NCBI GenBank assembly: GCA_964645645.1
Contig: CAZYBC010000004.1
Coordinates: 5,148 to 69,147 of the forward strand
From: an uncultured Pseudomonadales bacterium
Lineage (GTDB): Bacteria; Patescibacteriota; Microgenomatia; UBA1400; PJMF01
DNA length: 64,000 nt
Direction: 5' to 3'
Shown here: positions 1-44,206 of the stretch, in pieces
Layout of the letters: every line of letters starts with the position of its first letter
Position numbering within the stretch: position 1 is the stretch's first letter
Position numbers and translations under genes: made by a program
Notes under the pieces: generated by a model
What the model saw: only the letters and a program-made list of their open reading frames with translations
The model's database searches: none
Told to the model about the DNA's origin: nothing

Positions 1-2700
1 AGTGGCATTATTTGGCAAGCTATTTTGCAAGGTGATGGTGATCAACAAGTTACTTTAAATTCTGTTACCGTTACCGCTGAATTAGATAGTACTGCGCCAC
101 CAGTTAATGCCACTGCCGTAACTGTTATTGGAGCTGGTGCAGGTGGCTGGGTAAACACTGAACCAACTATTTCTTGGGCTAGTGGCTCTGACAATGATGG
201 AGGATCAAGAATTCTAGGCTATTGTATTGCTTTAGATGAAGTTAACATTGATTCAGCCAGCAATACACTTAATCCTGCTACCCAAGCTGGTTCTGTCATG
301 GAAGTTGACGGTAGTGTCATTGATGACGGAGTTGAATCGGCAGCTTGTCCATATATTGTTATTGGAAATAGTGTTAATTTAGCCAATATTACAGGTTTAA
401 CTTTAACTTCTGGCAAACAATACTATTTTAGTATTAAAGCTTTAGATAATGCTGGGAATATCTTTTCTGGGAGCAGTGAAGATTATCAAGATTTAGCTAC
501 TTTCAAAATTGATAATACCGCACCTAGCAATCCAGCATATATTTCTTTACCTGGTGATTTTATTGCCACCAAAAGTGCTACTTTATCTTGGCCAATTTCT
601 GGCGGTCAACAAGCCAGCGATGATGCTTCTGGAGTAGCTGGTTTTCAATATCGAATTGGCACCAGCGGCACTTGGTATGGTGATATTCACAATGGCAATC
701 AGAATTCTACTGATCTTCTTACTAATGACGGCAACTATGAATTCACCCAAGCCTATGATTTTGCTAATATTGCCGAAGGGACTAACTTGATCCAATTCCG
801 TACCTATGACAATGCTGGCAATGTTTCTAGTGTTGTCATTACTGGACTTTTAAAAATTAATACCACTGCTCCAAGTGAGCCAGCTAATCTTACAGTTACT
901 CCTAGTACCAATACTGTTAATTCTTTTGCTTTTGATTGGGATGTTCCAGCTACTTATTCTGGTAATATTGATGAATTTACATATTGTTACACTGTTAATA
1001 CCTTACCTTCAGCAACAACCTGTAATTGGACTGCAGCAGGTGTAACAGAATTAACAGCCGATGCTTACGCTACTCAGCCTGGATCAAACGTTTTTTATTT
1101 AGTCAGTAAAAGTGATGCTGGCACAGTTAATTATGAAAACTATGCTTCTATCACCTTTACTGCTAATACTTCTGCACCAAGTATTCCCCAAAACCTAGAC
1201 ATCGCTGATGTAAGCGTCAAAGCTACCAGCTCTTGGAAATTAGCTTTAGCCTGGGAAGCTCCTAGCAGTTTGGGAGCTGGAGTGGAGTACTATCAAGTTT
1301 ATCATTCTACAGATAACAGCACGTTTACTTCAGAATCCACTGTTTATGACATTTCTTATGTTGATACAGGTTTGTCTCAAGTGACCCATTACTATAAAGT
1401 AAGAGCCTGTGATAGCGCTAATAATTGTGGAGCATTTACCTCAGCAGTTTCTCTTTATCCTGATGGAAAATATACTACTTCACCAAGTTTAAATTCTGGA
1501 CCTAGCGCGAGTAATTTAACTACCAAAAAAGCTACGATCAGTTGGACTACTAGCCGTACATCTGACAGTAAAGTTGCTTATGGTCTTAAAAGTGGGAGTT
1601 ATTATGACGAAGAACCTTCTAATTCTAGCCAAGTCACTGATCACTCAATTAAATTAACTAATCTTTCTCCAGGTACTACTTACTACTATAAAGCCAAATG
1701 GACAGATGAAGATGGCAATACTGGCGAATCAGATGAAAAAACCTTTACTACTAATCCAGCTCCTTCTATTTCAGCCGTAGAAGCTACTGACACTGGCTTG
1801 TCTTCTACTTTAATCACTTTCACTGTTAAAAATGCCGTTAAGGCTAAAATTCTTTATGGTAAAACTGCCAATTATGGTGGTTCTCAAGAAGTCACGACAT
1901 CTACGCTAGAATCAACTTACTCAATTAAATTAGAAGATTTGGACGATGATTCAGAATATCACTATAAATTAGTGCTGTTAGATACTGAAAATGCTGAATA
2001 TGAGTTTGAAGACCATGTCTTCCAAACTTTACCTAGACCAAGAATTAGTAACGTTCAAATAGAAGAAATCAAAGGAGCAGCTCAACCAGCTGTATTAGTT
2101 AGTTGGGAATCCAATACAGGCATTTCCAGTATTATCAATTACTACCCAATTGATAATGCTAAGGAAACTCTTAACCAAGTAAATATCGAATTAATTAAAG
2201 GTGAACATCAAATGTTACTAAAAAATTTAAAAGCTGAGACTCAATATCAGATGTATATTAAAGGTGTTGATAAAATTGGTAATGAGGCTGTTTCTAGTTT
2301 AACTACTTTTACCACTGCCACTGATACTCGTCCTCCAGTTATCTATAACCTTAAAATTAGCACAGCTACTCAAGGTGAAGGGGCAGAGGCCCAGGCTCAA
2401 CTTTTAATTTCTTTTGATACCGATGAAGAATCAACTACACAGATTGAATTTGGAGAAGGTAGCCAAGAGACTTATTCTCACCGTACTCAATTAGATACAG
2501 ATTTAACCTTACATCACTTTACAATCGTGCCTAATTTGTCTCCAGCCAAAGTCTATCACTTACGAGCTTTAACTAAAGATAAGGCTGGTAATGAAACTGC
2601 GTCAATTGATAAAGTTATGGTCACTGGTAGAGCAACTGATAATGCCTTAGATTTGGTCATTAATAATTTATTTGAAATATTTGGATTTCTAAGAAAATAA
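1..2700 (+). CDS. Large secreted surface protein with tandem fibronectin-III/Ig-like repeats. It is N-terminally truncated by the window edge, because the frame is open back to position 1. It is a paralog of 35705-38872.
   Basis: Open frame from nt 1. Repeated beta-sandwich-like segments such as SWTTSRTSDSKVAYG and LSPGTTYYYKAKWTDEDGNTG. The C-terminal 400 aa align with the protein on the opposite strand at 35705-38872. Confidence 0.7.
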   Translation, partial: SGIIWQAILQGDGDQQVTLNSVTVTAELDSTAPPVNATAVTVIGAGAGGWVNTEPTISWASGSDNDGGSRILGYCIALDEVNIDSASNTLNPATQAGSVMEVDGSVIDDGVESAACPYIVIGNSVNLANITGLTLTSGKQYYFSIKALDNAGNIFSGSSEDYQDLATFKIDNTAPSNPAYISLPGDFIATKSATLSWPISGGQQASDDASGVAGFQYRIGTSGTWYGDIHNGNQNSTDLLTNDGNYEFTQAYDFANIAEGTNLIQFRTYDNAGNVSSVVITGLLKINTTAPSEPANLTVTPSTNTVNSFAFDWDVPATYSGNIDEFTYCYTVNTLPSATTCNWTAAGVTELTADAYATQPGSNVFYLVSKSDAGTVNYENYASITFTANTSAPSIPQNLDIADVSVKATSSWKLALAWEAPSSLGAGVEYYQVYHSTDNSTFTSESTVYDISYVDTGLSQVTHYYKVRACDSANNCGAFTSAVSLYPDGKYTTSPSLNSGPSASNLTTKKATISWTTSRTSDSKVAYGLKSGSYYDEEPSNSSQVTDHSIKLTNLSPGTTYYYKAKWTDEDGNTGESDEKTFTTNPAPSISAVEATDTGLSSTLITFTVKNAVKAKILYGKTANYGGSQEVTTSTLESTYSIKLEDLDDDSEYHYKLVLLDTENAEYEFEDHVFQTLPRPRISNVQIEEIKGAAQPAVLVSWESNTGISSIINYYPIDNAKETLNQVNIELIKGEHQMLLKNLKAETQYQMYIKGVDKIGNEAVSSLTTFTTATDTRPPVIYNLKISTATQGEGAEAQAQLLISFDTDEESTTQIEFGEGSQETYSHRTQLDTDLTLHHFTIVPNLSPAKVYHLRALTKDKAGNETASIDKVMVTGRATDNALDLVINNLFEIFGFLRK

Positions 2701-2703
2701 GCC

Positions 2704-3447
2704 ATGACTAAAAAAGAAATTCTAACTATCAAAGACGTTACCAAAAATTTTGTCGTGGGCAAACAAAAAATTGAAATTATTAAAAAAGCCTCTTTTACAA
2801 TTTACGAACAAGACTTTGTCATTATCTTTGGCCCTTCTGGTTGTGGTAAAAGCACGTTGCTCCACATTATGTTAGGCTTAGAAGAACCAAGTAGTGGTCA
2901 AGTTAACCTGCTAGGACAAAACTTATACCATTTAGATGAAGATAACCGAGCTGAATTGCGTAAAAAACAAATTGGGATGATTTATCAGCAAGCATTTTGG
3001 ATGCAATCCAGAACTGTTTTACAAAATGTTGCATTTCCTTTAACTCTCTTAGGCAAACCGCGTAGTGTTGCTTATGAACGAGCCTTAGAAAGTTTAAAAT
3101 TAACTGGAATGGACAATTGGCAAAATTATTTTCCAACTGAACTTTCTTCTGGGCAACAACAAAAGGTTTCTTTAGCTAGAGCATTAATTAATAATCCAAC
3201 TTTAATTGTAGCGGACGAACCAACTGGTAACCTAGATAGCGGCTCAAGTTTAGAATTAATGAATTTAATGAATAAACTTAACCACGCTGGTAAAACTATT
3301 ATCATGGTTACTCATGACCTAGAGTTTTTGAAATTTGGAAGTAGAGTAGTAGAAATGAAAGATGGAGAAGTTATTCAAGAATTAACCAATAATCATAGCG
3401 AAATCAAAAAAGCCAGTCAAAATGGCAAAAAACATTTATTAACATGA
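2704..3447 (+). CDS. ABC transporter ATP-binding protein (MacB/LolD-like)
   Basis: Walker [13 protein letters not shown] signature LSSGQQQ, Walker [17 protein letters not shown] stop overlaps the ATG of the next gene. Confidence 0.9.
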   Translation: MTKKEILTIKDVTKNFVVGKQKIEIIKKASFTIYEQDFVIIFGPSGCGKSTLLHIMLGLEEPSSGQVNLLGQNLYHLDEDNRAELRKKQIGMIYQQAFWMQSRTVLQNVAFPLTLLGKPRSVAYERALESLKLTGMDNWQNYFPTELSSGQQQKVSLARALINNPTLIVADEPTGNLDSGSSLELMNLMNKLNHAGKTIIMVTHDLEFLKFGSRVVEMKDGEVIQELTNNHSEIKKASQNGKKHLLT

Positions 3448-5450
3448 AAAATCTCGGTCAAAAATTAATTAAATATTCTTTATCTGCACTTAAAAATTTC
3501 CAGGAAATTTTTATCTTTTTTCTATTATTAAATTGTTTTTTTATCAATCAGCTATTTAGCAAAATTACAAATATAAATAAGTTACCAACTTTGATTAAAC
3601 AAATTGTTCACAATTGTCAGCAGATTGTACTAAAGGTTATGAACAAACTGGATAGAGGAAGCCGTGACAGTATTTCTCAAACTGAGATTATCCAAATTTC
3701 TCTTGAAAATATGTTTGTTAAAACTACCAGAACCGCAATTACAGTAGGAGGTATGAGCATTGCTATTGCCGTGATTGTTTTTTTAGTTTCTATTGGTTAT
3801 GGTTTACAAGATTTAGTTGTTTCTAGAGTTAGTAAATTAGAAGAAATGCAACAAACTGATGTGACTACTGGAGATGTAGGCAACTTATTTATTAATGATG
3901 AAAGCCTCAATGTTTTTTCTGGCATTAATCATGTTAAAGCTGTTTACCCAATTATTTCTTTAGTTGGAAAAGTCAGCATCAAAGAATCAGCCACCGAAGT
4001 AGTCATTAATGGCGTTACAAGCGATTATCTTAAAAACTCTGCTCTTAAAACCAGCAAAGGATATATTTTTGAAAATAAAGATACCACTCAGCCAGTCGCT
4101 GATAAAAAATTAACACTTACTCCTAGCCAAAACGTCGAGCCAGATATAAATGTGCTAATCGGTGAAGTTGAATTTTATCTTGATCAAAATCAATGGTTAG
4201 CAGTTAGAGAAGAACCTCAAAACAATGCCACTATCATTGGCTATACTCAACGCATCAATAGCCGAGCTCAAAATGGAGAAGAAGTCTGGGGAGAAAGTTA
4301 TAATAATGAGGAAACAACTGGCCAAGCTAGTGAGAGCGCTACTGGCCAAAAACTCGGTAAATGGATTAAAAGCGAAGTGGCTCTATGGGAAAAAACTGCT
4401 TGCGATGAAAGTAATTCTGATTGTATTAACGGCCAGTACTTAATGATTAGAGACAATAGCCAACAGCAACTAAAACAGATAGGTTATTTAACTGAAAATA
4501 AATTAACTGCCTATAGTTTAGTCAAACCACTGGGCGCCGAGACCAATAACACCATTAATGAAAACCAAAGCCAATCAATTGATGACCAAATTAAAGAATT
4601 AACTTCTCAAAACAAAGAAGAAGTTAGCAAAACTGAAAAAATAAAATTAAGTGATGAAGCTCAAAAAGAAATTATTGTTAATAATGCCATGGTGCAATTA
4701 TTAGGTGAAAATCTAGATAGCATTCTTAATAAAGAGATTGAAATTACCTTTATAGTTACCAGTGATCTAACCACTGGCCAACAAAATAAAAAAGTTGAAT
4801 CTTTTCCTGCTAAATATAAAGTGATTGGCATTATTAATAATGGCACTAATGCCATGGCTTGGGTACCCTTTACAGATCTACGCTCTTTAGGCATTAATAA
4901 TTATTCTAGTGCTAGAGTCATTTTGGATACAGATAAAAACCTAACAATTGTAAGAACTCAGATTGAGAATATGGGCTATAAAACAAATTCAGTGGCGGAC
5001 ACTGTTACTAAAATAAAAAATCTCTTTACTACTTTTAGAATTACCCTTGCTGCTATTGGAATGGCATCTTTAGGTGTAGCTGCACTGGGAATGTTTAACA
5101 CCTTAACAATTTCACTCTTAGAAAGAACCAGAGAAGTAGGCGTCATGAAAGCCATTGGCATGAAATCTAGAGAAGTTAGAGATTTATTTTTATCAGAATC
5201 AATGATCATGGGTTTTATGAGTGGTATTTTAGGAATTATCATTGGTTTTGTAGCTGGAAAAGTCACTGGTTTATTACTCTCTGTATTTTCACTCACTAAA
5301 GGTTATGGTTTATTGAATATTACTTCATTACCACTTTCTTTTATCTTGATAATTATGTTTTTATCAATTACAGTTGGATTTGTGACTGGTATCTATCCAG
5401 CTAATCGAGCGAAAAAAGTATCAGCATTAAATGCGGTGAGATATGAATGA
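3444..5450 (+). CDS. ABC transporter permease, FtsX/MacB-like, with a large extracytoplasmic domain
   Basis: N-terminal TM segment, about 400-aa soluble domain, then C-terminal FtsX-type TM helices (LLERTREVGVMKAIGM motif). Translationally coupled to the upstream ATPase. Confidence 0.8.
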   Translation: MKNLGQKLIKYSLSALKNFQEIFIFFLLLNCFFINQLFSKITNINKLPTLIKQIVHNCQQIVLKVMNKLDRGSRDSISQTEIIQISLENMFVKTTRTAITVGGMSIAIAVIVFLVSIGYGLQDLVVSRVSKLEEMQQTDVTTGDVGNLFINDESLNVFSGINHVKAVYPIISLVGKVSIKESATEVVINGVTSDYLKNSALKTSKGYIFENKDTTQPVADKKLTLTPSQNVEPDINVLIGEVEFYLDQNQWLAVREEPQNNATIIGYTQRINSRAQNGEEVWGESYNNEETTGQASESATGQKLGKWIKSEVALWEKTACDESNSDCINGQYLMIRDNSQQQLKQIGYLTENKLTAYSLVKPLGAETNNTINENQSQSIDDQIKELTSQNKEEVSKTEKIKLSDEAQKEIIVNNAMVQLLGENLDSILNKEIEITFIVTSDLTTGQQNKKVESFPAKYKVIGIINNGTNAMAWVPFTDLRSLGINNYSSARVILDTDKNLTIVRTQIENMGYKTNSVADTVTKIKNLFTTFRITLAAIGMASLGVAALGMFNTLTISLLERTREVGVMKAIGMKSREVRDLFLSESMIMGFMSGILGIIIGFVAGKVTGLLLSVFSLTKGYGLLNITSLPLSFILIIMFLSITVGFVTGIYPANRAKKVSALNAVRYE

Positions 5451-5454
5451 TGTT

Positions 5455-5670
5455 ATTGATCATAGGCTTTGTAAACACACCGCGAGCGGAATGGTTTACA
5501 AAGCCTATGATCAATAACTTAATTAAACACGCCGCAGGCGGAACGATTTACAAGATCTAATATTAGCTATTCTAGTTAAACGCACCGCAGGCGGAACGAT
5601 TTAGAAAGAACAATACTAAGATCATAACTTGATATTTTTTAAATGCACCGCAAGCGGAATGGTTTAAGCT
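5455..5670 (+). repeat. Tandem array of four REP-like imperfect palindromic units. The 26-nt cores are AAACRCRCCGC-NN-GCGGAAYGRTTTA, starting at 5473, 5525, 5578 and 5641. The first unit is embedded in a longer 22-bp-arm inverted repeat.
   Basis: Direct reading shows cores aaacacaccgcgagcggaatggttta, aaacacgccgcaggcggaacgattta, aaacgcaccgcaggcggaacgattta and aaatgcaccgcaagcggaatggttta. Flanking arms are ttgatcataggctttgtaaac / gtttacaaagcctatgatcaa. Confidence 0.8.
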
Positions 5671-5713: not shown

Positions 5714-6067
5714 ATGAACTTACTTTTTTTTACTTTATCTGCTTTGTTAAGTTATCGTTTTAATAGTTCTTTATCTAGACAAGGACATAAGATTAATAAA
5801 AGAATGCCGTATTTAAAAGTTAAATGTTTTCAGTTTAGTCCTAACATCAAAATTATTCTTAAAAGTAGAACTATTCACCTTCATCATTGGTTTACTTACT
5901 CAATTATTTTAATTATTACCCTTACTTTTAAGGCTGGATTTTTAGATAGCTTATTTTCTCAAGGTTTTTTATTAGGTGGCATTATTCAGGGTTTAACTTT
6001 TCCAGACTGGAAAAAATTTGTCATTAAAAATGAAGAACTTGAATCAAACCGTCAATTAAAACTATGA
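5714..6067 (+). CDS. Hypothetical small membrane protein
   Basis: ORF only, with hydrophobic segments and no recognisable motif. Confidence 0.3.
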   Translation: MNLLFFTLSALLSYRFNSSLSRQGHKINKRMPYLKVKCFQFSPNIKIILKSRTIHLHHWFTYSIILIITLTFKAGFLDSLFSQGFLLGGIIQGLTFPDWKKFVIKNEELESNRQLKL

Positions 6068-6816
6068 ACAATATCTTGATACCTTTATCACTTTCATTTT
6101 TAGCTGGAATCTGTACAGTTTTTGGAAGTTTTATTCTTTTTTTTATTAAAAATTTTAAAAAAAGTTATTTAAGTTTTTTTCTAGGAATTTCTGCTGGATC
6201 AATGATTTACCTTTCCTTTATGGAATTAATGCCAGAATCAGTTACTGAACTCGGCTTTGGACTAGCTAATACAATGTTTTTTTTAGGAATATTATTTATT
6301 GCAATTATAGATTTTATTGTTCCTCATCATTTTATAAACTATTGCTCAAAAAAAGGTATTAAATATAATAAACTGATGCTTTCAGGATTTATGGTTGCTG
6401 TAGCTATAACAATTCATAATTTTCCAGAAGGAATAGCAGTTTTTATGAGCTCATTAGGAAATACTCGTTTTGGCCTTTTAATTGCTTTTGCTACCGCTCT
6501 TCACAATATCCCAGAAGGAGTAGCAGTTGCCACACCAATTTATTTTGCTACTAAAAATAAATTTAAAGCTTTTAGCTATTCACTCCTAGCCGGTATTGCC
6601 GAACCATTAGGAGCCATTATTGCTTTTATTATTTTAAAACCTTATCTTTCCCCAATTTTTTTATCTTATATTTTCGCTTTCATCGCTGGAATAATGATTT
6701 ACATTAGCTTTGATGAATTATTACCATCTTGTTTTAAAAATAGCCAAGAACACACAGCAATTGCTGGTATTATTCTAGGCATGCTAATAATGGTTTTAAG
6801 TTTAAATTTTATTTAA
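6064..6816 (+). CDS. zupT: ZIP-family zinc transporter (ZupT-like)
   Basis: Multi-TM protein with HNFPEGIAV and HNIPEGVAVA metal-binding motifs typical of ZupT. Confidence 0.8.
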   Translation: MNNILIPLSLSFLAGICTVFGSFILFFIKNFKKSYLSFFLGISAGSMIYLSFMELMPESVTELGFGLANTMFFLGILFIAIIDFIVPHHFINYCSKKGIKYNKLMLSGFMVAVAITIHNFPEGIAVFMSSLGNTRFGLLIAFATALHNIPEGVAVATPIYFATKNKFKAFSYSLLAGIAEPLGAIIAFIILKPYLSPIFLSYIFAFIAGIMIYISFDELLPSCFKNSQEHTAIAGIILGMLIMVLSLNFI

Positions 6817-6863
6817 TTTTTTATTTTCTATAACACTAACATTTGATAAATAATACTTGACTT

Positions 6864-6885
6864 TTATTGAATATCTATTCAATAA
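6864..6885. promoter_or_regulatory. Operator-like palindrome TTATTGAATA-tc-TATTCAATAA. It sits between a TTGACT -35-like hexamer (6857-6862) and the likely true start codon at 6893.
   Basis: Perfect 10-bp inverted arms read directly. The same core recurs at 8122-8155. Confidence 0.55.
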
Positions 6886-6892
6886 TGTTATT

Positions 6893-8095
6893 ATGCCCAA
6901 ATCTAAAAAACAACCAAATAATAAATTATTATTTTTACTAACATTCTGCTTAATTTCCCTATTTTTAATCATTTACTTAATTATAAATAAACCAATTTCT
7001 GTTTTTAAAAACTTAGAAAAAAAATCAACTATTAATGGATTGATGATGCTCATTGAGTTTGAAAAAATTGACGGCATTTTACAATGGGAAAAAGAATTAG
7101 ATAGTCGTAATTTAACAGCTCTAGTTAAAGTTCAAAACAATGTTTTAGAAGAATACCCAGAAGTTTTTGAAAGATTAGCCAGCAAAGGTTATGAAATTGC
7201 TGGAGGATACGATAAAGCTGCCTTTTGGGATATGTCTTATGAAGAACAATATAAATATTTAAAAGAAGCACAAGAAATAGTAGAAAAAACAACTCATAAA
7301 AAAATGAAAGTTTTTGGTAGCCGCTATTTTGCTTATGATGAAAACACGCTTAAAGCTGCTGATGAATTAGGTATTGAATATATTTTAGGGAGAGGAACTC
7401 AAGATGTTTTAGCTCTTATTTATGCTCCTCAAGAATATAATATTAAAATTATTTCTGTTACTAATGTTGAAAATGGAGAAATGGGACGGGGTTCGTTATG
7501 CGATTATAGTCTTTGGGCTAGAGGAGCTGATTCAAAAGAATTTGCCCAAATTTTAACAGAAAGTATTGCTAAGAAACCAAAAAACATGATTTTAGTTTCT
7601 CATGCTTATCTGGGTGGGACTAGACTGGAGTGGTGGGAAGAATATAAACAAATCTTAGAATCTGACCAAATATCTTGGGTAGATTTTGATACTTGGGTAA
7701 ATAAACAAAACATTTTAACAATCTCAAATACTGATATTCCAATCAATCGAGAAGTAAAATATGTCCAACCTCAACCAGCTAAGGATATGGAAGAATATGC
7801 TCCAATTCCATCTTTAGAACAGAATGAATTAGTCATATTTCATAATGGATTAGGAGAAATGTGTTTAGAGGCTTTAAAATTTTTTAAACAACATCAAATT
7901 AAATTTATAGAATACTTAAACACAGACAAAAATTTTGCTAACCTACTAGCTAATTATCAAAAAGTATATCCCAATAGTGAAGGTGAATCAGATAGCTACC
8001 AATATTTTCCAGTCATTTTTTACAAAGGAAAAGCTTATTCTGGATTCAACGAAAAAATCAGAAATGAAATCTTAAAAAATTCTTCGAGAAAATAA
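6893..8095 (+). CDS. Hypothetical membrane-anchored protein with a C-terminal glutaredoxin-like segment. The ORF track starts it at a TTG at 6857, but the ATG at 6893 (MPKSKKQ) is the more likely start.
   Basis: N-terminal TM anchor. No catalytic motif recognised. The track start overlaps the promoter and operator. Confidence 0.5.
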   Translation: MPKSKKQPNNKLLFLLTFCLISLFLIIYLIINKPISVFKNLEKKSTINGLMMLIEFEKIDGILQWEKELDSRNLTALVKVQNNVLEEYPEVFERLASKGYEIAGGYDKAAFWDMSYEEQYKYLKEAQEIVEKTTHKKMKVFGSRYFAYDENTLKAADELGIEYILGRGTQDVLALIYAPQEYNIKIISVTNVENGEMGRGSLCDYSLWARGADSKEFAQILTESIAKKPKNMILVSHAYLGGTRLEWWEEYKQILESDQISWVDFDTWVNKQNILTISNTDIPINREVKYVQPQPAKDMEEYAPIPSLEQNELVIFHNGLGEMCLEALKFFKQHQIKFIEYLNTDKNFANLLANYQKVYPNSEGESDSYQYFPVIFYKGKAYSGFNEKIRNEILKNSSRK

Positions 8096-8121
8096 TATCT
8101 CTCTTGACATTTAGCTTCCAT

Positions 8122-8155
8122 ACAATTATATTGAATACTTATTCAATATAATTGT
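8122..8155. promoter_or_regulatory. 34-bp perfect palindrome ACAATTATATTGAATA-ct-TATTCAATATAATTGT. It overlaps the -10 region downstream of a TTGACA hexamer at 8104-8109, upstream of the DUF5320/DUF134 pair.
   Basis: 16-bp perfect inverted arms read directly. It shares the TATTGAATA/TATTCAATA core with 6864-6885. Confidence 0.6.
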
Positions 8156-8178
8156 AAAAATGAAAGGATAAATACAAT

Positions 8179-8370
8179 ATGCCAAGATTTGATAAAACAG
8201 GCCCACAAGGACAAGGTCCAAAAACTGGAAGAGGCATGGGAGAATGCGAAAAAAATGAAAAAAAGACAAAAAGAGGATTTGGAAGATGTTGTGATAAATA
8301 TGGTAGAGGTATGGGGAGATTTGCAGGAAAAAATATTGAGCAAATAGAAGAAAAAAATACTGATGCCTAG
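8179..8370 (+). CDS. DUF5320-family small Gly/Pro-rich protein
   Basis: MPRFDKTGPQGQGPKTGRGMGEC matches the MPRGDGTGPxGxGPxTGRG signature of DUF5320. An AGGA-type RBS lies 8 nt upstream. It is adjacent to a DUF134 gene, as is usual for this family. The antisense ORF 8143-8343 is rejected. Confidence 0.6.
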   Translation: MPRFDKTGPQGQGPKTGRGMGECEKNEKKTKRGFGRCCDKYGRGMGRFAGKNIEQIEEKNTDA

Positions 8371-8641
8371 AAATAAAATCCCCCGTTGTATACAGTTTAA
8401 TTCTAATGTTGTTTATTTTAAACCTCAGGGTATTCCACTAAAAATACTGGAAGAAGTCGTCCTTTTAGTTGAGGAGGTTGAAGCTTTAAGGCTTTACGAG
8501 GTCGATAACTTAAACCAAATAAATGCTGCTGAAAAAATGAAAATCTCACAGCCAACTTTTGCGAGAATCTTAGCTAGTGCAAATAAAAAAATTGCTGAGG
8601 CAATTGTTAAAGGTAAAGCTATTAGGATTTTATATCAATAA
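8363..8641 (+). CDS. DUF134/UPF0251-family putative DNA-binding protein
   Basis: MPRNKIPRCIQFNSNVVYFKPQGIP ... LSQPTFARIL ... GKAIRI matches the UPF0251 pattern (MPRxxKxRxV..P....FKPxGIP, C-terminal HTH). Confidence 0.65.
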   Translation: MPRNKIPRCIQFNSNVVYFKPQGIPLKILEEVVLLVEEVEALRLYEVDNLNQINAAEKMKISQPTFARILASANKKIAEAIVKGKAIRILYQ

Positions 8642-8664
8642 AAATTTGTAAAAATTTTCAATAG

Positions 8665-8700
8665 ACTTACTGCAAAATTTTATTTCGCAGTAAGTTTATT
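8665..8700 (+). terminator. Rho-independent terminator hairpin (ACTTACTGC...GCAGTAAGT) followed by TTATT
   Basis: 9-bp perfect stem read directly, 20 nt after the DUF134 stop. Confidence 0.5.
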
Positions 8701-8830
8701 AATTAAGCCAATCTTTGCCCATAGTTAAAATGAGTAAAACTCTAGCTTATCATAAATGGTTCTGTAGCAAAAAAACCTAGCTATCTGTTTTTTTTCTGTT
8801 TATAATGAGAATAATGCAGGTTTTGAAAAA
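8695..8830 (-). pseudogene. Degraded remnant of the 3' end of a metallophosphoesterase paralog (compare 15418-16098)
   Basis: The reverse complement reads ...FMIS*SFTHFNYGQRLA*, paralleling PLMINPGFTRFNYGQ of 15418-16098. About 70 percent nucleotide identity to 15440-15545, with an internal stop. Confidence 0.5.
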
Positions 8831-11504
8831 AATCTCTATTCCTTTGTGGAAGAAACTAATCATTAGATTTTTGTTATTAGTGGTTCTAACTGGCAACCTT
8901 TATTACTTATCATGGAGATTTAACACTTTATTCTGGACTAATAGAACTTTATCTGGCCTTTTGTTACTGACTGAATTAGTTTTTTTTGCTAATTTTTTAA
9001 TTCATTTTCCAGTTTTATGGCTTAAAAAACCAAAAAATATTTTAACCCAGATACCTAAATTTACTAAAAAATTAGCCATTTTGATTCCTACTTACAATGA
9101 ACCATTAAACATTCTTAGCCAGACCATCGAACAAAGTTTAGCTATAGCAATTCCTCAAAATTTAAAAGTTAAGATTGTGGTATTAGATGACGGCAACCGG
9201 GACTGGCTAAAAAAATATGTTAAGGAGTTAGCCAAAACAACTTCGGTCACTTTGGAATACTTAACTAGAACCGAAAGGTTTGGTTATAAAGCTGGCAACA
9301 TTAACAACTACCTTAAAAGTGTTTGCCAAGAAGATTTTATTTTAGTTTTAGATGCTGATTTTGTTCCTTTCAAAAATATTTTGGAAGAATTTTATCCTTA
9401 CTTAGGTATTGAAAAATTAGGTTTTGTTCAAGCTCCGCAATTTTTTAATAATATTGCTAAAGGTGATCCGTTTGGACAGGATCCTGCTATCTGGTTTTCA
9501 CTTTTACAGGTTGGCAGATATGGTCAAAATGCCTTAATTTGTTGTGGCTCTCCAACTTTATGGTCAGTGCCAGCTCTTCAATCTATTGGCTATATGCAAT
9601 ATAGCGTCACCGAAGACTTTTTAACTGGAGCAATGATTCAATCAAAAGGATGGCAAGCTATTTATTTGCAAAAAGATGTTGCTGAGGGTAAAGCGAGTGA
9701 AGATATTATTGATGTCAAGAAAAAAACTTTACGTTATTCTTCCGGGGCTTTTGAATTTTTTTCTTTTGCCAAAAAGTTATTAGCCAATGGCCATTTGTCT
9801 TTAAGACAACGTTTTTTACATTTTACCTATCCTTTAGCTTTTGTTGCACCTTTACTAACCCCAATTTTAATTGCCATTCCGATTTTATCCATCTTAACAG
9901 GCATTAGCCCTTTTGTTATTGACCAAAGTAGTTACCCTCATTTATTAAGCCAAATTATTGCTTTAATTAGTTTTCAAATTATTTTCTTTTTAGCCGTAGG
10001 TAAAAAAGCTTGGAAATCTTGGCAATTTTATTTAGGAATGTTCCCAGTTTATACAAAAGCGCTGTTACAAACTATCTTTGGTAAAACTGTGTTTCAAGTT
10101 AGTAAAAAAGGCGTCCAAAGTGCCGCGGCTTATGCTCAATTAAAAGCAGTTCGATTACAAATTTTTATTTTATTACTAAGCTGGGTTACCTTTTTTAAAG
10201 GTTTATTACTTTTTAGAGAAAATATTATTAGTATTTCTTTATATCCAGCTCTTTTCTGGTTGTTACTCAATAATTTTCTATTATTTGGCGTAATAAAAGC
10301 TCCTTTGTATTTAAGTTGGCAACAACTATTAACTCAAATTAAAGAACTAGGTAAAAATAAATTAAACTTTTTATTCAATAAAAAATTTGCGTTGATGGCT
10401 TTTATTTTTTTGATTATTGCTGGAGCAGGCAGTATGTGGTTTAGACAACGCTCAGTGCCTAATATAGAAGTTAAAGTACAACAAACAAATCTTAATAAAA
10501 TGAAAAATAACTTAGATTTATTAACAACTAAGTTATCACTTAATGACGACAGACGCTTCCAAACTTTACTATTTTTTACTGATTGGGGTGATAATAAGCG
10601 TGAAGTTGGCCAGGCTAATTTTTATCTTAAAGTTGAACCATCATTAAACTTAGCTTATGAAAATCAACTTGTGCCAATTATTACTTGGGAACCAGTAAAA
10701 AAGAATCTTTTAGGAGAATTTGCCGAAGACATCACTTTAAAAAGTATTAGAGAAGGGCAAAGCGACCAATATTTAATTGGCTGGCGAAATGGTTTGCAAG
10801 AATGGATGGATAAACATCCCGGATACGAAGTGAGAATTAGATTAATGCACGAAATGAACGCTCCAATTGACCGCTACCACTGGAGCCATGTTTCTCCAGC
10901 TGAATATCGAGCCAGTTATGAATATGTTTATAATTTAATTAGCCAAGTTAATGGTAATTTAAAGTGGATGGCAGTTTTCCAAAACTTCACGGCTGATGCT
11001 GGATGGACACAAAAACGAGCTAAAGATTATGACCGTTATATTCCTAATATTCCGGTTGATTATATTGGAATAGATGGTTACAGCAGACCTTTCTTAGCTG
11101 GTAAAGATGGGCCACCTGGAGGAGAAGTTACTCCAGCTCAAGTGTTACCCAGAGCCTTCTTTAAAGCCATGCGAGAAGCTTATCCCCAAGCAAAACTAGT
11201 TATCAGTGAAACAGCTGTCCCATATATGCCTAAAACTGATGAAGCCTTACCTTATCCAGCTGGAGAACTATCTTATCAAATGACAGATCTTGAGCGAGCC
11301 GCGTGGATTAATGACTTTAAAGATTATTTATTAGAGATCGACCAAGATTTTGGACTAGAAGAGATGACCTGGTTTAATGGTAATACTGATTATCATTGGT
11401 CAATTTTTGCCGAACAAGACCAATTAACAATCGCTGCCTTTAAGCAATTAATGTTAGAGTTAAATAAGGCTAAAATTAAAATTGGAATATATCCTGGTGA
11501 ATAA
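8805..11504 (+). CDS. Membrane GT2 processive glycosyltransferase (cellulose/chitin-synthase-like) fused to a C-terminal GH26-like domain
   Basis: GT2 motifs VVLDDGNRD, VLDADFVP, QAPQFF and TED, plus multiple TM helices. The C-terminal 350 aa carry RLMHEMNAPIDRYHW, resembling the GH26 motif of the two downstream genes. The true start may lie downstream of 8805. Confidence 0.65.
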   Translation: MRIMQVLKKISIPLWKKLIIRFLLLVVLTGNLYYLSWRFNTLFWTNRTLSGLLLLTELVFFANFLIHFPVLWLKKPKNILTQIPKFTKKLAILIPTYNEPLNILSQTIEQSLAIAIPQNLKVKIVVLDDGNRDWLKKYVKELAKTTSVTLEYLTRTERFGYKAGNINNYLKSVCQEDFILVLDADFVPFKNILEEFYPYLGIEKLGFVQAPQFFNNIAKGDPFGQDPAIWFSLLQVGRYGQNALICCGSPTLWSVPALQSIGYMQYSVTEDFLTGAMIQSKGWQAIYLQKDVAEGKASEDIIDVKKKTLRYSSGAFEFFSFAKKLLANGHLSLRQRFLHFTYPLAFVAPLLTPILIAIPILSILTGISPFVIDQSSYPHLLSQIIALISFQIIFFLAVGKKAWKSWQFYLGMFPVYTKALLQTIFGKTVFQVSKKGVQSAAAYAQLKAVRLQIFILLLSWVTFFKGLLLFRENIISISLYPALFWLLLNNFLLFGVIKAPLYLSWQQLLTQIKELGKNKLNFLFNKKFALMAFIFLIIAGAGSMWFRQRSVPNIEVKVQQTNLNKMKNNLDLLTTKLSLNDDRRFQTLLFFTDWGDNKREVGQANFYLKVEPSLNLAYENQLVPIITWEPVKKNLLGEFAEDITLKSIREGQSDQYLIGWRNGLQEWMDKHPGYEVRIRLMHEMNAPIDRYHWSHVSPAEYRASYEYVYNLISQVNGNLKWMAVFQNFTADAGWTQKRAKDYDRYIPNIPVDYIGIDGYSRPFLAGKDGPPGGEVTPAQVLPRAFFKAMREAYPQAKLVISETAVPYMPKTDEALPYPAGELSYQMTDLERAAWINDFKDYLLEIDQDFGLEEMTWFNGNTDYHWSIFAEQDQLTIAAFKQLMLELNKAKIKIGIYPGE

Positions 11505-11570
11505 TGATAAATTGCTAGGGGATGTAGTATAATTACATTATTAAACTAATATCATTTTAATAACTCATTT

Positions 11571-12674
11571 GTGAAAAAAATCAAAAATTTACCACTACTA
11601 TTAATTATCACCTTCATCGCTCTAGCTTCTTTGCTTTTGGTTTATTACTTACCTCGTAGTCAAGATACTCGATCTAAAGGTTATACTGAAGAAACATCTG
11701 TCAGCCCACAAACAGTTCTTGAGCCAACTACCACAACTGTAGAAAAAACCAGAGAACCTCTGTACTTAGGCTTTATCGTTAAAACCATTAGTGATCAAGA
11801 CATTAATGATGTTAATCAGCTTAGCAATAATCAAGTCTCCTTAATTGGTTCATATATCCAATGGGGCAATACCGGTAACTCCAAATTTACTCCAGAATTT
11901 TTTCAAGTCTTTAAACGCAGACAGATAACTCCGCTAATTACCTGGGAGCCATGGGATCCCAGCGCTGGTGTTAATCAAAAAAACTATACTTTAAGAAGCA
12001 TCATTAATGGAGATCATGATGAATATATTAGACAATCAGCTCAAGCAATCAAACGCGCAGAAATGCCTGTCTTTTTACGTTTTGCCCATGAAATGAATGG
12101 CAACTGGTACCCATGGAGTGGCACTACAAATGGCAACACAGCTCAAGAATATAAAGCTGCTTGGCAACATGTCGTGGAACTTTTTCGTTCTGAAGAAGTC
12201 ACCAATGTTACCTGGGTCTGGAGTCCTAATTCTGCCAGCTATCCCAACGACCCACTCAATGATTTAGCAGCATATTATCCAGGTGATGATTATGTTGACT
12301 GGGTAGCTTTAGATGGCTTTAATTGGGGCACCAAACAGGCAAGCAGTGGCTGGCAAAGTTTTGACAGCATCTTTCAAGAGTCTTATCTCAAATTAGTCAA
12401 TTTAACTAGCAAGCCAATCATGATTGCAGAAGTTGCTTCTACTGAATTAGGTGGAAATAAAGCTACTTGGATTAAAGAAACTTTAGAACAAAGCTTAAAA
12501 GATAATTATGCTCAAATTAGAGCCGTGGTATTTTTTAACCTAAACAAAGAAACTGATTGGAGAATTGAATCTTCTCCCACCAGCGTCACTCAATTTATTG
12601 AATCACTCAATAGTTTGCCATTTGTTACTAATTTAAATTTACTAAATGGTAAAATTTTAGAACCATCACTTTAA
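11571..12674 (+). CDS. Secreted glycoside hydrolase family 26 (beta-mannanase-like)
   Basis: N-terminal signal/TM segment and RFAHEMNGNWYPWSG. Confidence 0.7.
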   Translation: MKKIKNLPLLLIITFIALASLLLVYYLPRSQDTRSKGYTEETSVSPQTVLEPTTTTVEKTREPLYLGFIVKTISDQDINDVNQLSNNQVSLIGSYIQWGNTGNSKFTPEFFQVFKRRQITPLITWEPWDPSAGVNQKNYTLRSIINGDHDEYIRQSAQAIKRAEMPVFLRFAHEMNGNWYPWSGTTNGNTAQEYKAAWQHVVELFRSEEVTNVTWVWSPNSASYPNDPLNDLAAYYPGDDYVDWVALDGFNWGTKQASSGWQSFDSIFQESYLKLVNLTSKPIMIAEVASTELGGNKATWIKETLEQSLKDNYAQIRAVVFFNLNKETDWRIESSPTSVTQFIESLNSLPFVTNLNLLNGKILEPSL

Positions 12675-12709
12675 ACCTGATTTTTTTAAAAGTTAGGTTA
12701 TAAAAAAGC

Positions 12710-13948
12710 GTGCCAACTAAGAAAAAAACAAAAACTGCCCATTCTGTTTTGCTTAAAGTTTTAGGCTTTTTATTTTTGTTTTCTTTATTCACCCTAAGTT
12801 TTTTTACTGTTGTTTCAATCAATTCCACCAAAAAAAATTATTTATCAAAACATAACGACCTGTTATTAAGTTATCTAAAAAATCCACCTGATAATATTCT
12901 TTTACAAGGTATTACTGGTTCAGCTAGCCTCAATACTTATTACCAGCTTGATTTAACAACTGACAGCAATTTGGCTTATCAACAACTAAAAAATCCACAA
13001 TTAAAGCAAGAACCACCCCAACTAAAACCGCTTACTCCTCCTACTGATTTTTCAGACCGATCAACTTCTGAATTAGGCTTTAAACTTTTACAAGAGTTAC
13101 AAAAATTTGTTAACAACACTCCTTTTTTAAATCAAAATGATGAGCTACGTGATTTTGTTGCCCTCAATAAAAATCAACTCCCTAAAGTGGCAATTATTGG
13201 CCGGTTTCAAAATTGGGCTGATCCGCGCACTAACCGTTTTGACCAATACTTTGTTAATAGTGTTAAAAAAATGGGTGCTATTCCATATATTACTTGGGAA
13301 CCTTGGGCTGAAAAAGAACAAGCCGATCCCAGCAATCAACCAGATTTCCGTTTAGCAAACATTGTTGAAGGTAAATTTGATAAATACATTAAAGAATATG
13401 CCAAAGAAGCAGCTAAGTTTAACTATCCACTTTTTATCCGTTTTGCTCATGAAATGAATGGTCATTGGTATCCTTGGGGAGGGAAAGTTAATCAAAATAC
13501 TCCAGAAGATTACGTGGCTGCTTGGAGACATATTCATCAAATTTTTAAACAAGAAGGTGCTCATAATGTCATCTGGGTTTGGTCGCCTAATGAACCTTAT
13601 GGTGGGGCTTCTAACCAGAATTCAGACTTATTTAATCTTTATTATCCAGGTGATGATTATGTTGATTGGGTGGGTTTTTCTGCCTACAATTGGGGCAATT
13701 ATCGAGAATATGATACTCCACGCACTTTTAAAGAAATCACTGATGCTTCATACCAACTTTTATCACAGTACAACAAACCTCTCATGATCTCAGAAATTAA
13801 TAGTGCTAACATTAATGTGGATAAATTAGCTTGGATAAAAGAAATGAAAAAAACTATTTTGGATTATCCAAAAATAAAAGCAATTGTTTGGTATGAGAGT
13901 GAACAACAAATGCCTTTTAAAATTGAAGAACAACTTTTTTTTCAATAA
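12710..13948 (+). CDS. Secreted glycoside hydrolase family 26 (beta-mannanase-like), paralog of 11571-12674
   Basis: RFAHEMNGHWYPWGG, ITWEPW and YYPGDDYVDWVG are shared with the upstream paralog. Confidence 0.7.
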   Translation: MPTKKKTKTAHSVLLKVLGFLFLFSLFTLSFFTVVSINSTKKNYLSKHNDLLLSYLKNPPDNILLQGITGSASLNTYYQLDLTTDSNLAYQQLKNPQLKQEPPQLKPLTPPTDFSDRSTSELGFKLLQELQKFVNNTPFLNQNDELRDFVALNKNQLPKVAIIGRFQNWADPRTNRFDQYFVNSVKKMGAIPYITWEPWAEKEQADPSNQPDFRLANIVEGKFDKYIKEYAKEAAKFNYPLFIRFAHEMNGHWYPWGGKVNQNTPEDYVAAWRHIHQIFKQEGAHNVIWVWSPNEPYGGASNQNSDLFNLYYPGDDYVDWVGFSAYNWGNYREYDTPRTFKEITDASYQLLSQYNKPLMISEINSANINVDKLAWIKEMKKTILDYPKIKAIVWYESEQQMPFKIEEQLFFQ

Positions 13949-13951
13949 CTT

Positions 13952-15415
13952 ATGAAAAATTTTATAGTAACTAAACTAGCTAAAAAAAAAGAATTAATCT
14001 TTATTTTTTTGCTAACAATTTTAGGCGCTTTACTAAGATTTAATAATTTAGCTAGTAAAGAATTTTGGGAAGACGAAGCTTTTACTGGTATAATTGTCAA
14101 AGAAAATTGGGCTGAAGCTTGGAATTTAACTCTCAATGACACTCATCCACCGTTATATAACATGTTACTAAAAGCATGGGGAGAACTATTTGGTTATACT
14201 GATTTTGCTTTAAGAAGTTTGTCTGTGGTTTTAGGTACTCTGACTATCCCATTAGTTTTTTATTTGGTTAAAAAGCTCCAAAATTTATCTCGCTTAACTC
14301 CTTATTTTGCAGCAATTATCGTTACGGCTAACCCATTTTTAGTTTATTACTCTCAGGAAAGCCGCTCTTATGCCTTATTAGGGTTAGTGACAGTCTTAAC
14401 AACCCTAGCTCTTTACCAAGCCTTAACTCAACCAAAGTTACAATTAAGTAAAAATTGGTTAGCTCTCAGTTTTTTATTAACCTTAGGTATTTTTACTCAT
14501 TATATTTTTTTCTTTACTGTCTTAGGAGTGGGTTTAACTATTTGTAGTTATTGGCTAGCAAATCATCAACTACAATTAAAAAATCTCAAACATTTAGCAC
14601 TCATTACTATTGAAACAAGCTTTTTACCTCTCTTAAGTTTTGCGCTGTGGTGGCCATTATTTAAAACCCAAACCAACGTAGCCAAAGATACCACTGCCTG
14701 GATTCAGCCTGTTAATTTTAGCTATCTAATCAGAGATGCTTATATTGCTTTTTTTGGCTTTAACCAACATTGGGCCAGAATTCTGCCCATCACTGAACCT
14801 TTTGCCATTATTATTTTGTTATTGATTTTCAGCTTGATTATTTATACCCTTATCAAAACTAAAAATAGATTGGCGCTTCTATTTAGTTTTGTCATGAGTA
14901 TCGTCCCAATTTTAGCTATCATCATTGTCTCACTTTATTTTGGCAAACATCTTTTTTTGGAAAGATATTTAATTGGCTTTAATATTTTCTTGCTCATTTT
15001 TATCATTACAATTATTGCCGAAACAGAAAAAAAATTACTGATTTATCCGCTCGTTGGTTTTTATTTATTAATTGCTTGTAACTCTTTATTCAACCCTCAA
15101 GCTGGAGCTGATAAAGCTCAACAAAACTTAGGTTATAGAGAACTAAATAATTACATTAAAAACAGCAATAAAACTTTTGTCTTTGCCGACCCATTTGAAT
15201 TCACCATTGCTAAATATTATTTAGATAAAGAATTTTGGCCTAAAATCAAAGTTTTTGATTACCGCCAAGGATTATGGTATGGCACTTGGTTACTAATAGA
15301 TGACGTAGACTGCGTCAACCCTTGGACTATGAACAATTACCTGGTGGTTAACTATGATCCGTTTAATAGGGGAGAAGCAATCAGGATTAAGGAATTTAAG
15401 CTTTATGAACAGTAA
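13952..15415 (+). CDS. Integral-membrane GT-C glycosyltransferase (GT39/ArnT/PMT-like)
   Basis: About 11 predicted TM helices plus an N-terminal FWEDEAF loop typical of the GT39/ArnT fold. Confidence 0.55.
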   Translation: MKNFIVTKLAKKKELIFIFLLTILGALLRFNNLASKEFWEDEAFTGIIVKENWAEAWNLTLNDTHPPLYNMLLKAWGELFGYTDFALRSLSVVLGTLTIPLVFYLVKKLQNLSRLTPYFAAIIVTANPFLVYYSQESRSYALLGLVTVLTTLALYQALTQPKLQLSKNWLALSFLLTLGIFTHYIFFFTVLGVGLTICSYWLANHQLQLKNLKHLALITIETSFLPLLSFALWWPLFKTQTNVAKDTTAWIQPVNFSYLIRDAYIAFFGFNQHWARILPITEPFAIIILLLIFSLIIYTLIKTKNRLALLFSFVMSIVPILAIIIVSLYFGKHLFLERYLIGFNIFLLIFIITIIAETEKKLLIYPLVGFYLLIACNSLFNPQAGADKAQQNLGYRELNNYIKNSNKTFVFADPFEFTIAKYYLDKEFWPKIKVFDYRQGLWYGTWLLIDDVDCVNPWTMNNYLVVNYDPFNRGEAIRIKEFKLYEQ

Positions 15416-17324: not shown

Positions 17325-17957
17325 TTAATGAGTACTTAGACTTTCAGTAAGCGCCCTACCAATCAATTTTTCTAAAAGAGTTAAATCACCTTCATCACCA
17401 GCTTGCATGGCTTTAAGATATTCCTTCCTATCATCATCTGTTCCGACTTGTATTTCAATAGGTGGTAATTTTAATTTCAGTAAAATAAGCGATGTTAATA
17501 TCCGAGCAGTTCGACCATTGTAGTCTTGAAATGGATGAATAAAGACAAACCTATGTTGAAACCAAGCAAGGAAGCAAACGACCTTATCTATATATTCTGG
17601 ATCATTAGATTTAGGCAAACTATTAAGCTGCGCCTTTAAATCATCTAATAAATTTTTAACCAATTCTGGTATTTGAAAATATGCTGGTGCTTCTTTTCCA
17701 GAATAAGTAACTTGGATAGTTCTAAACTTGCCTGCCCAATCAGGGAAAATCCATTGAAAAGAAATCGCATGGAGTTTAAGAATCAATGAAGTAGTAATTT
17801 CTGTGTTTTTTCTAGACTTGATTAAATCATAAATAAACTCTAAGCCTTTTTTTGTGCCTTCTAACTCAAATTGAAGTAATTTTGTGCGAGGAATAATACC
17901 AAAAGCGGTTTCTTTGAAAGAAGTTGCACCTAGTGGTTTTGTGCTATCAATAGACAT
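17325..17957 (-). CDS. Fic/Doc-family protein (putative AMPylating toxin)
   Basis: Fic motif HPFQDYNGRTAR, a variant of HPFx(D/E)GNGRxxR. Confidence 0.75.
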   Translation of the reverse strand: MSIDSTKPLGATSFKETAFGIIPRTKLLQFELEGTKKGLEFIYDLIKSRKNTEITTSLILKLHAISFQWIFPDWAGKFRTIQVTYSGKEAPAYFQIPELVKNLLDDLKAQLNSLPKSNDPEYIDKVVCFLAWFQHRFVFIHPFQDYNGRTARILTSLILLKLKLPPIEIQVGTDDDRKEYLKAMQAGDEGDLTLLEKLIGRALTESLSTH

Positions 17958-22681: not shown

Positions 22682-22713
22682 ATATTCCTCACTATCATTT
22701 GTTAACTATTTAT

Positions 22714-31882: not shown

Positions 31883-32083
31883 ATGTATAATTGGAACATA
31901 GACACTACTAAATTAAAGAAAAATCCTGATGAATACGCTAAATTTATTTTAGAACAAAGAATTAATTTTGGACTAAATGGTAAAAAACTTTCATTAAAAA
32001 ACCTTAAAAAATACTGGAACGAGTTAGATATTGATTTGGCAAAAAAAAATTATTTACAAAAAATTATATGGCCTCAATCTTAA
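31883..32083 (+). CDS. Small hypothetical protein overlapping the start of the downstream nucleotidyltransferase gene. It could be a cognate antitoxin.
   Basis: 66-aa ORF with a 16-nt overlap with 32068-32724. Confidence 0.3.
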   Translation: MYNWNIDTTKLKKNPDEYAKFILEQRINFGLNGKKLSLKNLKKYWNELDIDLAKKNYLQKIIWPQS

Positions 32084-40865: not shown

Positions 40866-40872
40866 GAAAACT

Positions 40873-42400: not shown

Positions 42401-42411
42401 AAAAACTCAAA

Positions 42412-43371: not shown

Positions 43372-43380
43372 GACTTAGTA

Positions 43381-43433: not shown

Positions 43434-43442
43434 TACCAAGAT

Positions 43443-44201: not shown

Positions 44202-44206
44202 AGGGT

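Follow-up and report, generated by a model that had tools for sequence, protein, structure and literature searches.

A conserved gene trio linking a large Fn3 surface protein to a type VII ABC transporter in Patescibacteria: a possible base for a stalked receptor

The closest described relatives of the system reported here are type VII transporters of the ATP-binding cassette (ABC) kind, whose known permeases have four transmembrane (TM) helices and whose partners known so far are hydrolase activators, adaptors, chaperones and a lipase. Transporters of this class do not carry a substrate across the bilayer and act by mechanotransmission onto an extracytoplasmic partner or substrate (PMC5985334, PMC7668044, PMC12646458), as FtsEX does on a partner outside the membrane (PMC7668044, PMC10694151). 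Here we describe two copies of a three-gene cassette, encoding a large surface protein with Fn3 domains, an ABC ATPase and a permease, in a 64,000-nt stretch of an uncultured, ultrasmall bacterium of the Patescibacteria (contig CAZYBC010000004.1, positions 5,148 to 69,147; hereafter the window). Both permeases belong to the type VII ABC superfamily (MacB/LolCE/YtrF fold), and around the large protein the three genes make up a conserved, dedicated unit that is apparently uncharacterised. We tentatively favour the reading that the ABC pair is a wall-pinned motor serving as the base of a ligand-binding surface receptor, and not a trans-membrane exporter. The transporter class and the mechanism of the diversity-generating retroelements (DGRs) discussed below are already known; the partner class, the private C-terminal tail of the large protein, an SH3b-like insert in the permease and the phylum-wide linkage are new.

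Gene order and linkage of the trio

The two cassettes lie in inverted orientation, and open reading frame (ORF) calls uphold the identical gene order and translational coupling that an earlier note on this DNA had seen in both. In cassette 1 (plus strand), the gene of large surface protein 1 (1-2700) is followed by ABC ATPase 1 (2704-3447, 247 aa, LolD/FtsE/MacB-NBD type) and type VII permease 1 (3444-5450, 668 aa). In cassette 2 (minus strand), large surface protein 2 (35705-38872, 1055 aa) precedes ATPase 2 (34919-35701, 260 aa) and type VII permease 2 (32901-34922, 673 aa). The spacing is the same in both: 3 nt separate the large gene from the ATPase gene, and the ATPase and permease genes overlap by 4 nt (ATGA). 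Pairwise BLASTP alignment of the two cassettes gives identities of 42% (large proteins, ~900 aa), 51% (ATPases) and 38% (permeases). Because the window edge cuts the 5' end of its gene, large protein 1 is visible only in part (899 aa) and its N-terminus cannot be judged.

The cassette recurs across many Patescibacteria lineages. One genome per species was scanned, giving at least 485 loci; the best 80 of these bear titles that include Woese-, Shapiro-, Pace-, Collier-, Davies-, Beckwith-, Roizman-, Moran- and Nomurabacteria, WWE3, WS6 and Microgenomates. The named permease homologues are Patescibacteria. The large gene, the ATPase gene and the permease gene follow each other on one strand almost everywhere (tblastn with ORF calling). 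Linkage was counted over 61 deduplicated loci with at least 3 kb of sequence 5' of the ATPase gene: in 57 of them an ORF bearing the C-terminal tail lies on the ATPase strand and terminates less than 900 nt upstream of the ATPase, and in the remaining four such an ORF lies within 2.6-7.7 kb. Copies of the tail motif itself number 73 across the loci, and each stands 9-12 residues before a stop codon. An ATPase of this type is within 8 kb of every copy and within 900 nt of 68. In the window, the motif is found at the two large proteins only. Full-text literature searches returned no description of the trio or of a DGR-ABC association, an earlier mention in connection with DGRs of the candidate phyla radiation (CPR) not being excluded. 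The earlier note likewise calls the function uncharacterised.

Several individual loci depart from the simple layout. One (L053) has two tail-bearing large genes in tandem (2237-4993 and 6674-8913) 5' of a single ATPase-permease pair, so that one ABC base may serve more than one large protein. In one lineage (L001, 5443-9872, and L002) a T4SS-like cluster comes after the cassette, with TrbC/T4SS pilin proteins, a VirB4-like ATPase and a Peptidase_M23 protein. Records marked 'MAG TPA_asm' (L004-L008, L011, L019, L021 and others, labelled Pseudomonadales, Gammaproteobacteria or Bdellovibrionales, and L012, labelled Anaerolineae) carry the cassette at 40-58% identity, and their organism labels look wrong, judging from these sequences.

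The ATPase-permease pair and its insert

Pfam identifies ABC_tran in both ATPases and MacB_PCD together with FtsX in both permeases, the latter above their cut-offs (FtsX, PF02687, 58-62 bits against 25.5; MacB_PCD, PF12704, 40-53 against 27). The catalytic motifs of the ATPases are intact, with Walker A, signature, Walker B and H-loop all present. Tests of the pair against curated NCBIfam models, each with its own cut-off, placed it in none of them. The best matches of the ATPases are LolD, MacB and FtsE at 195-205 bits, all under the cut-off, and the permeases reach 64-81 bits with the MacB model (cut-off 966), 52-67 with lolCE (cut-off 362) and 27-38 with the FtsX models (cut-offs 225-255). 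The earlier note had named a well-characterised LolCDE or MacAB identity with no Fn3 linkage as the outcome that would speak against its view; these scores and the linkage in 57 of the 61 loci point the other way. Sequence matches of the permeases in the PDB are YtrF, MacB, Spr0695, LolF/C/E and FtsX, and a Foldseek search with an AF2 model of permease 2 returned MacB, LolE, Spr0695 (5xu1) and YtrEF at E values of 1e-20 to 1e-16.

Hydropathy places TM1 at residues ~101-119 and TM2 at ~538-556, with an outer domain of ~418 aa between them, in agreement with the ~400 aa noted earlier; TM2-4 complete the canonical set. An extra conserved hydrophobic helix stands before canonical TM1, at residues 25-43 of permease 2 and 21-39 of permease 1, and is also found in homologues. 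An SH3b-like beta domain, inserted at residues 243-372 of permease 2 (33807-34196, minus strand), makes the outer domain about twice as large as usual. The insert has no Pfam match. Modelled alone, it reaches a pLDDT of 94.4. Residues W306, W314, C319 and C339 are invariant columns in homologue alignments that include permease 1, where the corresponding insert lies at approximately 4158-4544 (plus strand; located by alignment to permease 2). The insert resembles the wall-binding modules of lysins and is a putative wall-binding domain.

The pair shares much with FtsEX, in which a separate ATPase and a four-TM FtsX-type permease with its outer domain between TM1 and TM2 work on partners such as EnvC, PcsB, CwlO or RipC; FtsEX is wall-associated, as the trio presumably is. 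An FtsEX-like regulator of wall remodelling or division, with the SH3b-bearing permease controlling wall hydrolysis and the Fn3 protein as a scaffold, is nevertheless quite improbable. The ATPases do score near FtsE (195-197 bits), the likeness of the insert to lysin modules would suit such a role, and reconstructions of Patescibacteria list FtsE and FtsX as division genes by similarity (PMC11809585, PMC13059738). However, the FtsX models stay far under their cut-offs, and the permease is twice as long as FtsX, with a MacB-type PCD as well as the insert. The partner differs too: it is an Fn3-stalked protein of 1000-3000 aa in which Pfam finds no coiled-coil, hydrolase or LytM domain, in the window or among orthologues, and clustering of flanking ORFs found no conserved hydrolase or LytM gene. 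A housekeeping division factor would hardly be present in two to several copies per genome, carry hypervariable heads or reach ~3000 aa.

The best sequence and fold matches lie with MacAB-TolC, Spr0693-0695, YknXYZ and YtrEF, which share MacB_PCD with the trio. A second alternative follows from this likeness, namely a pump that expels or extracts a lipid, a peptide or some small molecule; in it the Fn3 protein would replace the membrane-fusion adaptor and provide a conduit or scaffold across the envelope, in the style of MacAB, YknXYZ or Spr0693-0695. It can cite MacB, Spr0695 and YtrF as the nearest solved relatives, the ATPase-permease fusions of MacB type that occur in the family (P0118), and source records that label homologues 'antimicrobial peptide transport system permease'. 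We regard it as unlikely, since even the best MacB score is 81 bits against 966 and no membrane-fusion-protein gene stands in or near the cassettes: none is conserved in the locus flanks, no adaptor-type domain occurs in the window ORFs scanned, and no outer-membrane duct was found. Pfam detects no adaptor-like hairpin, lipoyl or barrel domain in the large proteins of the window or in their orthologues. Furthermore, the lectin-like, DGR-diversified heads of orthologues suit target binding and not channel forming, the outer domain of the permease is ~200 aa larger than in this group owing to the insert, and the linked gene encodes a giant surface protein with a private C-terminal tail. The pump and the FtsEX-like regulator are less likely than the main rival explanation discussed below. 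The antimicrobial-peptide and lipoprotein-release labels of the permeases, as well as the FtsE/FtsX listings among division genes, may need checking against the trio family.

The large surface protein and its diversified relatives

The domain search of the large proteins returned Pfam fn3 and Pur_ac_phosph_N repeats. Large protein 1 shows Ig-like domains, a stalk of four Fn3-like domains and a C-terminal tail, VTGRATDNALDLVINNLFEIFGFLRK (2620-2697, plus strand). Large protein 2 consists of a signal peptide, two GY-FSEDVGW--F repeats, Ig-like domains, the four-Fn3 stalk and the tail IAPKATRSAFDLVMENLSSAFSFLRIIKE (35708-35794, minus strand); it is of the short type, in which Pfam finds no lectin module. 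An alignment of 60 orthologues (985-2973 aa) shows that the four Fn3-like domains and the tail after them are a shared C-terminal module. The last ~420 aa are the conserved part, with a modal-residue fraction of 0.7-0.85, and the tail follows the consensus ...TITPKAT-NAL(D/N)LVI-NL--AFGFL, then a few residues. The earlier note had described a conserved C-terminal region of about 450 aa with Fn3 modules and divergent N-termini; the first part stands, whereas the two large proteins prove homologous over their full shared length, with identity rising from 34.5% in the N-terminal part to 51% in the last 415 aa. The N-terminal parts of orthologues vary, carrying an FGE-sulfatase/C-type-lectin (CLec) fold, Laminin_G_3 or DUF2341 modules.

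A profile search over 1.84 billion representatives gave 7385 matches at E <= 1e-10, mostly generic multi-Fn3 proteins; the same search showed many large proteins, the longest of 6321 aa, with the Fn3-plus-tail unit at their C-terminus. With the last Fn3 domain and the tail as query, only short contig-end fragments were matched. The Southlakia protein SEML1_0890, an Fn3 protein in Tn-seq tables, was considered as an experimentally tested member and rejected, as it has 195 aa and falls outside the large-protein family of the trio.

Large protein 2 begins with a Sec-type signal peptide, KKFLPLVSLVLAGLLVLKSFHPLVYA↓SS (38765-38872, minus strand), recognised from translation and hydropathy, and a signal peptide or anchor is likewise present at the N-terminus of 39 of 48 complete orthologues. 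Many of the orthologue signal peptides combine an AxA-like site (IFA↓LND) with a conserved n-region, FFEPRFHFSRFQFN. Ten long orthologues (L003, L009, L011, L013, L015, L016, L037, L043, L045 and L063) have an unusual conserved motif in the cytoplasmic n-region, YFFEPRFHFSRFQFN, which stands ahead of the hydrophobic core and the IFA↓LND cleavage-like site. The cleavage sites in the window and in orthologues are AxA-type, and no lipobox cysteine was found in the large proteins. These Sec signals, together with the type VII class of the permease, speak against the earlier suggestion of an export system and argue that the large protein is not exported by this ABC transporter.

Within the tail, a conserved ITPKAT motif precedes ~19 aa of hydrophobic or amphipathic character, and K/R is often the last residue. 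The two window proteins end in ...ATDNALDLVINNLFEIFGFLRK and ...ATRSAFDLVMENLSSAFSFLRIIKE, neither of which is an LPXTG sortase signal; a sortase gene is present elsewhere in the window (57986-58618). No 19-aa window in the tail of either protein reaches the hydropathy threshold, and the mean Kyte-Doolittle value of the tail consensus is ~1.1 by hand calculation. Such a tail invites the main rival explanation, a C-terminal sorting and release system, in which the tail would hold the Sec-exported protein at the membrane until the ABC pair extracts it in a LolCDE-like manner and hands it to the wall or outer layer, so that the contact is transient. We consider this possible, if doubtful, and it is the closest defensible form of the 'assembly system' proposed in the earlier note. 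The sorting-signal-like layout of the tail, its restriction to genes adjoining the ABC pair and the presence of LolE and LolC among the best structural matches all fit, and the operon linkage fits equally well. LolCDE shares the type VII fold and acts on a Sec-exported, membrane-held protein, which makes it a plausible analogy for the tail. On the other hand, the polarity of the tail is too high for an ordinary membrane span, the four-Fn3 stalk is conserved as strongly as the tail, which a short signal would not require, and no LolA-like acceptor or chaperone gene is conserved in the locus flanks. The partner is not a lipoprotein, unlike that of LolCDE, and the best lolCE score is 67 bits against 362.

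The outer parts of the large proteins are connected with DGRs at many loci. In the clustering of flanking ORFs across all loci, the commonest neighbours 5' of the large gene are a reverse transcriptase (RT) and an Avd-like protein, and with the window RT as tblastn query, 20 of 83 loci showed an RT upstream of their large gene. The DGR of the window, which is complete (40720-43371, mixed strands; Pfam bAvd, RVT_1 and Lcl_C), comprises the template repeat (TR, 40720-40865), Avd (40873-41229, plus strand), RT (41216-42400, plus strand) and a target gene (42478-43371, minus strand) with its variable region (VR, 42462-42607). TR and VR are 91% identical over 146 nt, and 13/13 mismatches fall at TR adenines. 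The target is a 297-aa Lcl_C-domain protein with an N-terminal membrane anchor, and the VR lies at the 3' end of its gene. Large protein 2 was considered as a target and rejected: the TR matches neither large gene in the window, its match being confined to the VR in the separate gene. The idea that the Lcl_C target is a detached copy of the head of long orthologues was likewise dropped, as BLASTP gave no similarity. The DGR is thus tied to cassette 2 by synteny only, and any functional link is putative.

Two layouts recur elsewhere. In the window-like one (L004, L005 and L022, with a remnant in L007), Avd and RT are oriented divergently to the large gene, and the VR sits at the 3' end of a separate Lcl_C protein of ~290 aa. 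In the other, seen in nine distinct genomes (L009, L011, L013, L015, L016, L020, L037, L043 and L063), the RT lies just 5' of the large gene on the same strand and the VR is inside the large gene, at ~aa 360-450, at the end of the CLec module; here the mismatches are adenine-specific, 10/10 to 16/16 in the cleanest cases. The lectin module of these orthologues thus resembles the C-type-lectin targets of known DGRs (Mtd, TvpA and CPR targets) in holding an adenine-specific VR. It differs from them in that the VR stands ~360-450 aa from the N-terminus of a ~1550-aa protein, not at the C-terminus, and in that a conserved stalk and tail, linked to an ABC operon, make up the rest of the protein. 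In four further loci (L014, 5604-5720; L024, 5493-5610; L027, 5658-5777; L031, 4524-4644) the VR lies across the beginning of a stalk ORF without a signal peptide. The lectin head and Fn3 stalk therefore look like separate or interrupted ORFs, which may reflect a genuine split, a stop brought in by the DGR, or population variation affecting the assembly. Surveys describe CPR DGR targets as usually without recognisable membrane or other domains (PMC8144416).

The lectin-like heads and DGR variable regions of orthologues argue for a ligand-binding receptor or adhesin rather than the S-layer-like lattice protein suggested earlier, and Pfam and NCBIfam give no SLH or S-layer family in the large proteins of the window. 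Taken together with the proteins' own Sec signal, the private and invariant tail and stalk, the tight gene coupling and the wall-binding-like insert, they lead us to favour the ABC pair as the membrane base and motor of a stalked receptor. The large protein would be exported by Sec through its own signal peptide. It is modular, with a variable outer part above the conserved four-Fn3 stalk and the conserved amphipathic tail; the outer part is a lectin-like head in relatives, often hypermutated by a DGR, and short repeats with Ig-like domains in cassette 2. The permease dimer may form the membrane base, gripping tail and stalk, while the SH3b-like insert may pin it to the wall. ATP hydrolysis by the ATPase would then cause a conformational change that is relayed through the membrane and deploys or actuates the receptor, with no pumping of the receptor across it. 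Gene order and coupling, folds and domains, the linkage across the phylum, the signal peptides, the conserved tail and the DGR targeting in relatives are observed; what we infer is the grip on tail and stalk, the binding of the insert to the wall, and which way and to what end the mechanical work is done.

Several points weigh against this receptor-base model. The large proteins lack the coiled-coil or hydrolase domain of FtsEX-type partners, so that the analogy is one of transporter class only. Neither large protein of the window has a lectin head or a variable region, and for this reason the receptor argument is imported from orthologues. In four loci the large gene is displaced from the ABC genes or inverted with respect to them, the AF2 model of the whole permease is moderate (pLDDT 73.6, pTM 0.52), and operon linkage alone cannot tell a stable base and motor from transient sorting.

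Patescibacteria are a very large and mostly uncultured group that appear to live attached to other microbes, and to our knowledge how they recognise and hold their hosts is largely unknown. The trio offers concrete candidate hardware for attachment, in the form of a modular, sometimes DGR-hypermutated receptor tied to an ATP-driven type VII ABC transporter, and the giant Fn3 surface protein would be a new class of partner for such transporters. A bolder version, which we put forward as speculation and think rather doubtful, is that the trio is the main ATP-powered host-recognition organelle of Patescibacteria, whose wall-anchored type VII ABC motor mechanically deploys, tensions or retracts a long Fn3 stalk while a DGR keeps rewriting its ligand-binding head. 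If true, targeted hypermutation would be linked directly to an energised attachment machine, and CPR DGR targets, which up to now look featureless, would gain a cellular context.

Paralogous copies, hairpin repeats and neighbouring genes

The duplication in the window is old, as both permeases have nearer relatives in other genomes than each other: permease 2 has 63% identity to its closest orthologues and permease 1 at most 47% to any locus, against 38% between the two. In a neighbour-joining tree, permease 1 sits on a long branch apart from the permease 2 clade. An attempt to sort the loci into type 1 and type 2 by BLAST score gave no clean result. Two copies also occur in other genomes, divergent and ~10 kb apart in JBAYIT01, in the same orientation and ~73 kb apart in JACKFX01, and on separate contigs in CAZILK and JBDRQW. 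From their sequences, we read the two window copies as ancient paralogues kept side by side, which probably present different receptors.

An intergenic hairpin family with the conserved apex AAACACACCGCNAGCGGAATGGTTT is found in the window at 5446-5665, 32762-32897 and 43375-43445. Directly 3' of the permease 1 stop (5446-5665, plus strand), a long hairpin (fold -42.2 kcal/mol, z = -11.6) is followed by three more copies of the core AAAC-N-CACCGCNNGCGGAA-(T/C)G-(G/A)TTTA, and further copies lie 3' of the permease 2 stop (32762-32897, minus strand). In two copies the stems are long and perfect (-42 and -32 kcal/mol, z of about -12 and -9). No Rfam family was found at the 3' hairpins, which are probably REP-like or terminator elements. 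The shared 3' repeats reported in the earlier note are therefore real; they are not specific to the cassettes, since the family also occurs at 43401, after an AbiEii gene and beside genes unrelated to the cassettes. A public short-read contig (L085) starts inside the repeat tract 3' of permease 1 (~5552), which fits a repeat-induced assembly break.

It had been proposed that recombination between the cassettes or these repeats could invert the 27-kb segment between them (5451-32900). The inverted, convergent orientation of the cassettes would allow it, and the 3' hairpin repeats share a 55-nt, 84% match as well as the longest exact word common to both cassettes, 28 nt at 5454-5481 and 32870-32897. 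We find it very improbable: similarity in the coding DNA of the cassettes is confined to patches of 150-200 nt at only 71-74%, the duplication is ancient, the 28-nt word lies in a generic intergenic repeat, and other genomes arrange their copies differently, as described above. No alternative junction was found among the public contigs recovered by exact-protein look-up, two Logan contigs of ~2 kb that are too short and break at the repeats. The segment also carries uvrB and tRNA genes, and nothing supports programmed or frequent inversion. As for its content, the segment does hold defence genes (SIR2-HerA, type I restriction-modification (R-M) and AbiE), so that its description as the site of a defence island is correct in part; it also contains an envelope-polysaccharide cluster, tRNA-His, tRNA-Arg and uvrB.

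The polysaccharide cluster (6064-15415) lies directly 3' of cassette 1 and encodes a ZIP transporter, a polysaccharide deacetylase, an 899-aa cellulose-synthase-like GT2, two GH26 proteins and a PMT_2 glycosyltransferase. The defence cluster (19663-28012) consists of SIR2-HerA and then the type I R-M genes hsdM and hsdS; hsdR, being split into two ORFs (26573-28012 and 25304-26467), may be a pseudogene. Adjoining this cluster are a Fic protein (17325-17957) and an IS200-type transposase (18451-18885). Three AbiEii toxin genes lie in the regions 32068-32724, 39125-40401 and 43443-44989, two of them with AbiEi antitoxin genes; the copy at 32068 has only a 66-aa ORF ahead of it, and one AbiE pair sits between cassette 2 and its DGR. 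Further downstream (52374-58618), a 7TM_transglut protein, two ATP-grasp proteins and a MATCAP-like peptidase, a set that suggests a peptide-modification module, are followed by a PKD-domain protein and the sortase.

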